From NCBI GenBank assembly GCA_014860665.1, contig JACZJI010000048.1, positions 2,418-66,417 on the forward strand: DNA of 64,000 nucleotides, read 5' to 3'. Positions 4,051-6,836 of this stretch are shown here, piece by piece. A program made the translations under genes and the position numbers. Position 1 is the stretch's first letter. Each line of letters opens with the position of its first letter. Source of the DNA: Bacteroidales bacterium. Its GTDB lineage: Bacteria > Bacteroidota > Bacteroidia > Bacteroidales > F082. The notes beneath the pieces were generated by a model. The model ran no database searches, had not been told where the DNA came from, and worked only from the letters and a program-made list of their open reading frames with translations.

Positions 4051-5277
4051 ATGGACAATATTACAGGAATCGCAGGCAACAAAGGAAAGGGCGTGAGTTC
4101 AGATGCCGAAGTTGAGTTTCAGTCCACTTCAAAAGGAGGCATTGAGATTCAAATCGAAAGTAAAGTTAAAGCTCTTTATGGCAATCATATTCATAAATTG
4201 GCAGAAGACATCTTACGTTTTTTCCAAATCAAAAATGCCATTGTTAAAATAGCCGATACCGGAGCGTTGGATTTTGTGCTGGCAGCACGTTTGGAAGCAG
4301 CCATTAAGAAAGCACTCCCTGAAAAAAAGAAAGAATTTCTGCTTCCAATGCTGGATGAGAATCTGAACGGAAGTAAAAAAGAAGCTTTCCGCTTTTCCCG
4401 TCTCTACCTTCCCGGAAATTCACCCAAGCTGATGCTCAACGCCGGAATCCATAATCCCAACGGACTGATCCTGGATTTGGAAGATGCCGTAGCTTTGGAA
4501 AAGAAACACGAAGCACGTTTTTTAGTGCGGAATGCATTGAGAAACCTTCGCTTTTACGGAGCAGAACGAATGGTGCGCATCAATCAGGGAGAACGAGGAC
4601 TGGAAGATCTGGAATATGTTGTTCCTCATCATGTAAACCTGATCCTTGTCCCGAAATGCGAAAGTGCTGCTGAGCTAAAAACCGTGGACGAGAAAATTCA
4701 GGCTTTAAGAACTTCAAATAATATAGAGCACCCGGTTTGGCTGATGCCTATCATCGAAAGTGCCAAAGGCGTATTAAATGCTTATGAAATTGCATCCGCC
4801 AGTGAAAATGTGGTGGCGCTCGCCATTGGTCTGGAAGATTACACAGCCGATTTGGGGACCCAAAGAACCAACGAAGGCACCGAATCCCTATTTGCCCGTT
4901 CGATGGTCGTAAACGCTTCCCGTGCAGCAGGTATCCAACCTATTGATTCCGTATTTAGAGATGTCTCGGATATGGAAGCCCTCGCAGAAAATGTGAAACG
5001 TTCCAAGGCACTGGGTTTTGATGGAATGGGATGCATTCATCCCCGGCAGATCAAAGTGGTCCATGATAATTTTGCGCCGGAAGAAGGAGAAATTGATCAG
5101 GCAAAGAAGATCTGTATCGCCTTTAAGGAAGCCAAAGCCAAAGGTCTGGGCGTGGTTTCACTGGGTTCCAAAATGATTGATGCTCCCATTGTGAAAAGAG
5201 CCTTAAAAACCATCGACCTGGCCGTTAAAATGGGTAAGTTGGAAATGGATTGGGAATCAAAAGAAATTGAGAAATGA
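4051..5277 (+). CDS. citE: Citrate lyase acyl-carrier (gamma, CitD) domain fused to citrate lyase beta subunit (CitE, HpcH/HpaI aldolase fold)
   Basis: The N-terminal ~90 aa resemble CitD (AG..SSD, IESKVKALYG, DTGALDFVLAARLEAA). The C-terminal part has CitE motifs RLYLPGN, ILDLEDAV, VRIN, PKCE, IIESAKG, LEDYTADLG, GMGCIHPRQ and GSKMIDAP. Confidence 0.9.
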   Translation: MDNITGIAGNKGKGVSSDAEVEFQSTSKGGIEIQIESKVKALYGNHIHKLAEDILRFFQIKNAIVKIADTGALDFVLAARLEAAIKKALPEKKKEFLLPMLDENLNGSKKEAFRFSRLYLPGNSPKLMLNAGIHNPNGLILDLEDAVALEKKHEARFLVRNALRNLRFYGAERMVRINQGERGLEDLEYVVPHHVNLILVPKCESAAELKTVDEKIQALRTSNNIEHPVWLMPIIESAKGVLNAYEIASASENVVALAIGLEDYTADLGTQRTNEGTESLFARSMVVNASRAAGIQPIDSVFRDVSDMEALAENVKRSKALGFDGMGCIHPRQIKVVHDNFAPEEGEIDQAKKICIAFKEAKAKGLGVVSLGSKMIDAPIVKRALKTIDLAVKMGKLEMDWESKEIEK

Positions 5278-6836
5278 AAAAATACGACAACCTGGTAAAA
5301 AACGCGGTAGGTCGCATGGTACCAACCCAAATCAACGGAGAAGAACACATCCCTTTCATGGGGGTAGGTAAATACAAACCAACCGGACGTAAATTCGGAC
5401 CACGCATTTCCACTTGTATAGATTATCCGGAAGACGGAAACAAGCTGGTTGAAAATCTCAAAGAAGCGCTTGTAAAAGCAGGTTTAAAAGACGGCATGAC
5501 CATCTCGACCCACCATCATTTCAGGGACGGCGATTTGATTGCCAACCAGATTTTCGATATTGCCCATGAAATGGGTATCAAAAATCTCCGGTGGTTTCCT
5601 TCTGCCAGTTTTCCTTGTCATGCCCACCTTATCCCCTATCTCGAAGACGGCACCATCAGCCGTATTGAAGGAAGTATGAATGGGGCTTTGGGGAAATTCT
5701 GCTCCGAAGGAAAAATGGATGGAATTGGCGTATTAAGATCTCATGGAGGACGCTATCAGGCCATACAGGACGGAGAAGTTCAGATTGACATTGCTGTGAT
5801 TGCTGCCCCAACGGCAGATCCTTTTGGAAATGCCAATGGCGTAAACGGGAATGCCGCCTGCGGATTACTCGGATTTGCACTGGCTGATTCGCAATATGCT
5901 GACAAAGTAATTGTTGTTACGGACAATTTGGTTCCCTTCCCGGCCATTCCCTGGCAAATCCAGGGGAATTATGTGGACTTTGTGGTTAAGGTTGATCAGG
6001 TAGGCATCCCTGAAAAGATCATTTCAGGGACAACCCAGGTGACCAAAAGCCCTGACAGATTACTCATCGCCGAATTAACAGCCCGTTTTTGTGAAAGCAC
6101 AGGCCTGATTTATGACGGATTTTCCTATCAGGCAGGTGCCGGCGGAACAGCTTTGTCCATTGGCAACTATTTTGGAGAAATCTTAAGGAAAAACAATTGG
6201 AAAGCCCGGTTTATCAGAGCAGGAAGCAATAAATATCCTGTAGAAATGTTACAGGAAGGACTGGTTGAATACATTCTCGATGGTCAGTCTTTTGACCTGG
6301 ACGGTGTGAAATCGATGCGCGAAAATCCGAATCATGTGTGGACTTCTCCTTTTACTTCCTACAATTATCACGGGAAAGGGAACTTCGCATCTTTGGTAGA
6401 TGTAGTAGTTCTTGGTGCCACTGAAGTGGATGTGAATTTCAACGCTAACGTGGTGACTCACTCCGACGGCTATCTGTTGCATGGAATTGGCGGTTGGCAA
6501 AACACCCTTTTCGGGAAAACCACCATTCTTCCCATTCCCTTGTTCCGCGACCGTATTCCGATCATTCGTGACGAAGTGACAACGCTTTGTGCTCCCGGTG
6601 AAATGATTGATGTGATCGTTACTGAAAGAGGCATTGCCATCAATCCTTTGAGAAAAGACCTGATAGAAAAAGCAAAAAACTCAGGGCTGCCCATTAAAAC
6701 CATTCAGGAACTAAAAGAAGAAGCTGAAGCCATTTGCGGTGTACCGGAAAAACCCAGATTGAGCGATGAGATTGTGGCCGTCATCAAATGGGTTGACGGA
6801 ACCATTATTGACTCAGTGTACAAGGTACTCCCCTAA
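5274..6836 (+). CDS. citF: Citrate lyase alpha subunit (citrate CoA-transferase)
   Basis: LKDGMTISTHHHFRDGD, RSHGGR, QAGAGG, GATEVDVNFNANV, HGIGG, DVIVTERGIAINP and DGTIIDSV. ATGA overlap with the upstream gene. Confidence 0.95.
   Translation: MKKYDNLVKNAVGRMVPTQINGEEHIPFMGVGKYKPTGRKFGPRISTCIDYPEDGNKLVENLKEALVKAGLKDGMTISTHHHFRDGDLIANQIFDIAHEMGIKNLRWFPSASFPCHAHLIPYLEDGTISRIEGSMNGALGKFCSEGKMDGIGVLRSHGGRYQAIQDGEVQIDIAVIAAPTADPFGNANGVNGNAACGLLGFALADSQYADKVIVVTDNLVPFPAIPWQIQGNYVDFVVKVDQVGIPEKIISGTTQVTKSPDRLLIAELTARFCESTGLIYDGFSYQAGAGGTALSIGNYFGEILRKNNWKARFIRAGSNKYPVEMLQEGLVEYILDGQSFDLDGVKSMRENPNHVWTSPFTSYNYHGKGNFASLVDVVVLGATEVDVNFNANVVTHSDGYLLHGIGGWQNTLFGKTTILPIPLFRDRIPIIRDEVTTLCAPGEMIDVIVTERGIAINPLRKDLIEKAKNSGLPIKTIQELKEEAEAICGVPEKPRLSDEIVAVIKWVDGTIIDSVYKVLP

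Follow-up and report, generated by a model that had tools for sequence, protein, structure and literature searches.

A CitD-CitE fusion and its CitF partner in Bacteroidales: a citrate-lyase-like pair without loading genes and its possible action on homocitrate

Background

Can a citrate lyase work when the genes that load its carrier domain are missing and, if so, is citrate the acid that it cleaves? This question is raised by a locus at positions 4051-6836 of a 64-kb stretch of DNA (hereafter the window) from the Bacteroidales bacterium assembly GCA_014860665.1, contig JACZJI010000048.1, where a gene for a fused CitD-CitE protein (citDE) is followed by citF. Our analysis of domains, gene content and genome comparisons leads us to propose that the pair very probably runs on free coenzyme A (CoA) thioesters, and points to homocitrate as its most likely substrate, a choice that we hold with somewhat better than even confidence. 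A wider proposal, to which we give even chances, is that this putative homocitrate lyase is the last step of an upper aminoadipate pathway run in reverse, with CO2 fixed and NADH consumed, by which uncultured Bacteroidales and related lineages would convert lysine-derived 2-oxoadipate to 2-oxoglutarate and acetate.

In the canonical enzyme, CitG and CitX build phosphoribosyl-dephospho-CoA and attach it to the acyl carrier protein (ACP) (PMC10798043); the carrier MdcC is likewise modified, at Ser25 (PMC5534430). A sequence-only reading of the window had described a minimal two-gene citrate lyase and offered a choice: either the loading genes lie elsewhere, or the enzyme uses free acetyl-CoA or acts on another substrate such as citramalate or malate.

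Results

The fused gene pair

Both genes are intact, and domain profiles (PF06857, PF03328, TIGR01584) confirm the CitD-CitE fusion described in that reading, with its CitF, across the open reading frames 4051-5277 and 5274-6836. The frames overlap in an ATGA at 5274-5277, through which citF is translationally coupled to citDE. The features of the locus are as follows.

4051..5277, + strand: citD-citE fusion gene, 408 amino acids, a CitD-like domain joined to a CitE-type CoA-thioester C-C lyase (intact frame, domain profiles)
4051..4320, + strand: CitD/MdcC-like ACP domain, residues 1-90 (PF06857, E 1.5e-18 at residues 15-88)
4096..4098, + strand: Ser16, codon AGT, at the canonical attachment-serine position (same column as E. 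coli CitD Ser14, which we take to carry the prosthetic group)
4099..4104, + strand: Ser17-Asp18 (Ser17 is TCA, 4099-4101), matching the second Ser/Gly and the Asp of the canonical E-S-S/G-D
4378..5238, + strand: CitE-type TIM-barrel lyase domain, about residues 110-396 (PF03328 at 118-331; R176, E236, D263, D377)
5274..6836, + strand: citF, family II CoA/ACP-transferase, 520 amino acids (PF04223, E 2e-137; TIGR01584)
6480..6503, + strand: HGIGGWQN loop of CitF, family-specific, canonical CitF having GASGGHSD or similar (alignment)

The ACP domain exceeds the TIGR01608 citD cut-off (64.9 against 63.5 bits), and the citF product exceeds that of the citF equivalog TIGR01584 (508 against 501 bits; matches in the PDB are 2hj0 and 1xr4). 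The CitE domain, in which the catalytic Arg176, Glu236 and Asp263 and the C-terminal Asp377 are conserved, lies below the citE equivalog TIGR01588, at 266.8 bits against a cut-off of 443.4. Identity to the E. coli proteins is 40% for CitF and 38% for CitE. CitF of the fused family and four canonical CitF proteins differ at 32 fixed positions; the 403-412 loop, which may line the acid pocket, accounts for six of these.

Loading enzymes are absent genome-wide

The genome that contains the window (G000) is 99.65% complete. Hidden Markov model (HMM) searches found no CitG, CitX, CitC or MdcG in it, and control genomes gave the expected matches; tblastn with the E. coli proteins likewise recovered no citC, citG or citX. 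The absence of these three genes, first remarked for the 64-kb window, thus holds for the whole genome. The fusion occurs in 38 of 61 relatives, three times as a partial match; CitG accompanies it in just two of these 38 genomes, where it belongs to a separate canonical operon that has a free CitD of its own (motif TFESSD). In 70 further fusion genomes, a set that may partly repeat the first, CitG occurs once, inside a canonical citF-citXG-citC string. Of 56 fusion genomes, 2 yielded CitC, in each case from a canonical operon; the CitX HMM search covered G000 only. The suggestion that the loading genes lie elsewhere is therefore refuted for this genome and for nearly all of its relatives. Their presence elsewhere in every genome with the fusion, together with a modified ACP serine, had been named as the mark of a rearranged canonical enzyme, and the counts run strongly the other way.

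A canonical citD-citE-citF-citXG-citC operon, with citXG fused, does occur in some Bacteroidales (L082-L084, L115), and three genomes have the fused pair too; in G029, G057 and G373 a complete citrate lyase of the canonical kind is retained beside it. The window had also been said to lack a citrate transporter. No 2HCT citrate carrier was found in the genome; DASS/CitMHS-family transporters, their substrate unassigned, do lie on other contigs, a DASS member among them on C47.

The serine at the attachment site is a secondary substitution

The retained candidate serine is real in this protein, where the motif GVSSD occupies the place (codons 4096-4101), but it is not a property of the family. 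Among 201 close homologues site 16 holds Arg in 108, Lys in 84, Ser in 7 and His in 2. The seven Ser16 proteins are the nearest relatives of the window's protein and form a single clade (100/100 support) nested among the Arg/Lys sequences. Since 192 of 201 homologues have Arg or Lys and the serine proteins make up one nested clade, Ser16 is, on the aligned sequences, a rare secondary substitution. Its codon, AGT, is one base from CGT, the commonest Arg codon at the site. In another Ser16 carrier (L001), neither CitG nor CitC was found in the genome.

The adjacent Ser17 is invariant in the 201 close homologues; as an alternative attachment site it is unlikely, since Ala, Gly or Asn replaces it in many distant fusions. 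Against MdcC, the ACP-domain profile gave a weak match (E 0.02) that is in register with Ser25 if ungapped. One CitD-CitE fusion (P0194) retains the canonical motif AGTLESSD, so that fusion and loss of the serine are separable.

With the loading genes missing and the serine secondary in an Arg/Lys family, the ACP domain probably carries no prosthetic group. It is nonetheless well conserved (strongly so at D18, S37, D69-G71-A72 and R80 in the homologue alignment) and must therefore have some job, probably as a structural or assembly module, or as a CoA-binding module, that needs no cofactor. Complex prediction of CitF with the ACP domain scored 0.00, 0.60 and 0.00, which gave no answer and is not used as evidence.

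Because the carrier is probably unloaded, a free-CoA mode for CitDE/CitF becomes very probable. The AlphaFold model of the fusion protein is confident throughout (mean pLDDT 95), and a structural search placed the lyase domain nearest to free-CoA lyases: the best matches of the barrel are malyl-CoA lyase (5ugr, Z 34.1), CLYBL (5vxc, Z 32.9) and CitE (1sgj, Z 32.4). A precedent for such chemistry is offered by isolated canonical CitF, characterised as a CoA-transferase according to the title of Dimroth et al. 1977, as cited in PMC4008487.

Partner genes are inherited together with the pair

Neither gcvP, which lies upstream of the pair, nor the YwbE-family gene and the unrelated genes on its downstream side are conserved as neighbours; the only constant neighbour of the fusion is citF, which adjoins it in 75 of the 75 loci where citF was found, among 80 related loci. 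Elsewhere in G000, however, stand genes that travel with it. A homoisocitrate dehydrogenase (HICDH)-like protein of 407 amino acids is encoded on C57 and followed by an HD gene (together C57:21803-23643; the HD gene, 183 amino acids, at C57:23095-23643, or L116:9096-9644). Two fused homoaconitase-family hydratases lie at C57:26360-28201 and C35:10841-12643. In the dehydrogenase, Ile stands for Asn115 of isocitrate dehydrogenase (IDH); its loop Y-x-S-P-I-V may resemble the fungal HICDH (3ty3) motif, which is a lead only. In the Atlas, the HD partner is annotated only as 'HD phosphohydrolase'.

Ordinary citrate synthase, aconitase, IDH and LeuABCD are present separately. The citrate synthase (C94:76117-77415) is of the eukaryote-like Si type (NF007128 over cut-off) and adjoins an NADP-IDH of a eukaryote-like family. 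The idea that the pair replaces citrate synthase was rejected, given this Si-type enzyme, IDH and aconitase.

Counting one genome per genus outside the window's own, all 16 of the 16 genera that bear the fusion have the dehydrogenase, against 1 of the 21 others, the lone exception being an 82%-complete genome. The C57 hydratase occurs in 14 of the 16 and again in 1 of the 21, in the same exceptional genome. Across the phylum (an even sample of 300 genomes), close dehydrogenase orthologues, at 64% identity or more, were found in 18 of 20 CitF-positive and 4 of 280 CitF-negative genomes. The module thus stays co-inherited even when scattered, and since its partners are co-inherited here and clustered in other genomes, the window pair is the separated end of a conserved module.

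Operons and gene replacements in other genomes

In another lineage of the phylum, probably the Ignavibacteria, nine loci unite dehydrogenase, HD gene, hydratase, a PrpD-like gene, citDE and citF in one operon. The hydratase of this operon (G064) passes the homoaconitase equivalog TIGR00139 with 837 against 530 bits; no HICDH equivalog is passed by the dehydrogenase partners. Among Bacteroidales, L025 holds all six genes of the Bacteroidales type within about 9 kb, and in G029 a hydratase directly follows citF. Of 20 genomes of the other lineage 18 have the PrpD-like gene, but of 60 Bacteroidales just one, G030, the one well-assembled carrier that lacks the hydratase pair and has PrpD instead. 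The PrpD-like gene and the doubled hydratases exclude each other, so that two dehydration steps are preserved in either case, by different means.

In a further set of operons, which carry a dehydrogenase of a sister group (about 50% identity), a 3-hydroxy-3-methylglutaryl (HMG)-CoA-lyase-type enzyme and a family III CoA-transferase replace citDE-citF; the two loci read have a single LeuCD-type hydratase and no HD gene. Enzymes of both replacing types act on free CoA thioesters, so that the replacement supports the role proposed for CitDE/CitF as well as its free-CoA mode. The lyases of the CitE family act on substrates of (S) type, (3S)-citryl-CoA for example, and homoaconitase chemistry yields (R)-homocitrate. 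For this stereochemical reason CitE, unlike the HMG-CoA-lyase type, may need a PrpD-type step; the extra PrpD-like enzyme or second hydratase would then provide (S)-homocitrate, the form that a CitE-type site should require.

The HD gene accompanies citDE and citF wherever these are part of the module; three dehydrogenase-homoaconitase loci of CitF-negative genomes lack it, as do both operons of the HMG-CoA-lyase type. At L162, L163 and L165 (G165, G181 and G284), the dehydrogenase and homoaconitase occur without PrpD, HD or citDE/citF nearby.

A possible route from lysine

Adjacent genes for lysine-ketoglutarate reductase (LKR) and saccharopine dehydrogenase (SDH) lie at C72:46937-49690 of G000 (best PDB match, human AASS), and piperideine-6-carboxylate dehydrogenase (Pcd) is present above its cut-off on C144. 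LKR was found in 16 of 16 fusion-bearing genera. The 20 genomes of the other lineage divide between LKR (10) and lysine 6-aminotransferase (LAT; 11), only two having both and 19 at least one. Genes of the diaminopimelate (DAP) route are also present in G000: lysA, adjoining an aspartate-kinase-like gene, and dapB. None of 5 genomes yielded a LysX above its cut-off; in G000 the adenylating enzymes include no large Lys2-type reductase, and the LeuA-family matches no dedicated homocitrate synthase. With LKR/SDH and Pcd present, the DAP route present and LysX not found, gene content favours lysine catabolism. A KamA-like gene (C66) was considered as a sign of classical lysine fermentation and set aside, as it adjoins ATP-grasp genes.

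The proposed route would run from lysine through 2-aminoadipate to 2-oxoadipate by means of LKR/SDH and Pcd. The HICDH-like enzyme would reductively carboxylate 2-oxoadipate, and the two homoaconitase-family hydratases (in other lineages one homoaconitase and the PrpD-like enzyme) would isomerise the product to homocitrate. CitF would move CoA from acetyl-CoA, or another acyl-CoA, onto homocitrate and free acetate; the CitE domain would split homocitryl-CoA into 2-oxoglutarate and acetyl-CoA, with which the cycle would restart. On balance, 2-oxoadipate, CO2 and NAD(P)H would give 2-oxoglutarate and acetate, and the NADH made by Pcd would be re-oxidised.

Other features and distant relatives

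A scan for promoters and terminators stayed at chance level. Farther along the window, the reverse strand (8211-13210), read by eye, holds genes for a 4Fe-4S membrane protein, a hemerythrin-like protein, a 749-amino-acid quinol-type nitric oxide reductase-like protein, a cupin and a TetR-like regulator. In one distant clade of the CitD-CitE proteins (L172:1165-6582, L173, L175), RAD, RGD or RND occupies the site, and the fusion genes lie beside a GH127-like gene, a gene for a beta-lactamase-family hydrolase or both; these neighbours suggest another substrate, and one might speculate about citryl amides. Two proteins of 927-943 amino acids (P0157, P0190), with the ACP-CitE part C-terminal, are possibly CitF-CitD-CitE triple fusions.

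Discussion

The choice of homocitrate follows from co-inheritance, shared operons and gene replacements that tie the pair to homoaconitase-like and HICDH-like genes. Of the sequence-only suggestions, the use of free acetyl-CoA is supported, and so in kind is that of another substrate, where glutamate mutase E, being absent, and the co-inherited partners point to homocitrate rather than to citramalate or malate. Several observations weigh against the proposal. The G000 dehydrogenase and both hydratases fall below every substrate-specific equivalog cut-off and are assigned at the family level only, AksF2 being the best equivalog match with 273 bits against 540. The genomes counted are related and not independent samples, so that Fisher tests overstate significance. 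In G000 citDE/citF are unlinked to the partners, and G169 and G220 have the pair without dehydrogenase or PrpD; in the former (L171, G169:C1, about 1335000-1338000), citDE-citF stand behind ABC-transporter-like and hydrolase-like genes. LKR is found, too, in 8 of the 21 genera that lack the module, and an ordinary exit from 2-oxoadipate is at hand in G000 (sucAB and a glutaryl-CoA-dehydrogenase-like gene). To carboxylate 2-oxoadipate reductively is an uphill step that needs a pull. Finally, the use of free CoA, substrate, direction and stereochemistry are all deduced from genes.

Among the alternatives, true citrate cleavage that runs on acetyl-CoA or succinyl-CoA in free form and serves citrate fermentation or a reductive branch of the tricarboxylic acid (TCA) cycle appears unlikely. 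It would accord with a CitF above the citF equivalog cut-off, with the DASS-family transporter on C47 and with the published view of a gene pair in I. album (PMC3362086, discussed below). It leaves unexplained, however, why the pair is co-inherited and shares operons with extra hydratases and a dehydrogenase bearing Ile for Asn115; the CitE domain is also far under its equivalog, the CitF loop is unlike the canonical one, and G029, G057 and G373 keep a canonical citrate lyase besides.

We think it improbable that the module runs forwards, with CitDE/CitF as a non-hydrolytic homocitrate synthase that joins acetyl-CoA to 2-oxoglutarate, passes CoA to acetate or succinate, and leads to 2-oxoadipate for lysine or another product. 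The gene set would be identical, both lyase-type reactions are reversible, and G000 shows no dedicated enzyme for the synthesis among its LeuA-family matches; yet lysine is available there by the DAP route, neither LysX nor a Lys2-type reductase was found in the genomes searched for each, and Pcd and LAT are catabolic entry enzymes.

A different 2-oxo-acid pair, with chain shortening by way of citramalate, ethylmalate, isopropylmalate or a longer homologue, has an equally small probability. Specificities in the LeuCD, homoaconitase and LeuB/HICDH families overlap, and citramalate lyase shares the alpha/beta/gamma design; the G000 partners pass subfamily-level models only and distant fusions stand in unrelated contexts. 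Set against this, the hydratase encoded in the operons of the other class counts as a homoaconitase at the equivalog level, and lysine entry genes accompany the module. The methylaspartate/citramalate route of glutamate fermentation was rejected for G000, which gave no match to PF06368 (glutamate mutase E) and, for methylaspartase, only an enolase-like, partial match of 27 bits to PF07476.

Least probable is a rearranged ACP-dependent enzyme loaded at Ser16 or Ser17 by an unrecognised system, perhaps with the HD protein: Ser16 is present here, Ser17 is invariant among close homologues and the HD gene tracks with citDE/citF, being missing from operons without them, but CitG is missing and no other source of the prosthetic-group precursor is known, Ser16 is secondary, Ser17 is often replaced in distant fusions, and HD proteins are normally hydrolases.

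Were homocitrate cleavage on free CoA to prove true, the consequences would be several. At least 8000 matches, not all of them fused, place thousands of 'citrate lyase' entries in this or related fused families; those annotations, and the reverse-TCA inference for Ignavibacterium, would be wrong. The covalent CoA arm of citrate lyase would be dispensable in nature, and common sediment and digester bacteria would possess an oxygen-independent, CO2-incorporating route of lysine breakdown.

Comparison with known systems

New here are the genome-wide absence of loading genes, the secondary origin of the serine and a module co-inherited even when scattered. We found no publication on a cofactor-free variant, on a reverse homocitrate route or on homocitrate together with citrate lyase or PrpD, in a search that covered few subscription journals. 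The nearest published case is I. album, whose IALB_1146 and IALB_1147 (CitF and a fused CitE-CitD) are read in the relevant passages of PMC3362086 as a citrate lyase that is ATP-independent and might act in a reverse TCA cycle. By this description, the pair probably belongs to the same family as ours; those passages contain no assay and do not discuss missing loading genes, a lost serine or homocitrate-type partners.

With the canonical CitDEF and its CitC, CitX and CitG (E. coli citCDEFXG, Klebsiella, lactic acid bacteria; EC 4.1.3.6), the window pair shares the order D-E-F and the catalytic residues of CitE, and it has homologues of all three subunits. It differs in that D is fused to E, no CitC, CitG or CitX occurs in the genome, the family has Arg/Lys at the attachment site, the CitF loop reads HGIGGWQN for GASGGHSD, and homoaconitase-like and HICDH-like genes are co-inherited. 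The fused pair would thus be citrate-lyase-like in chemistry and yet fall outside the ACP-dependent enzyme, lacking CitG, CitX and CitC as well as a CitE above the equivalog cut-off.

The upper alpha-aminoadipate pathway of fungi (Lys20/21, Lys4, Lys12; PMC4302243) has homoaconitase-like and homoisocitrate-dehydrogenase-like partners and saccharopine enzymes in common with the bacterial module. The latter has a transferase and a lyase in place of homocitrate synthase, a second dehydratase (PrpD-like or a paralogous hydratase) and neither Lys2 nor LysX, and is probably reversed. Closest in proposed mode of action are the free-CoA pairs and enzymes (itaconate Ict/Ccl-RipC, CLYBL, malyl-CoA lyase, and the family III transferase with an HMG-CoA-lyase-type enzyme), which have in common with it a CitE-family fold acting on CoA thioesters. 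Unlike these, the window pair employs a family II transferase, CitF, and keeps a CitD-like domain. In related operons the citDE/citF slot is occupied by a pair of HMG-CoA-lyase type and family III.

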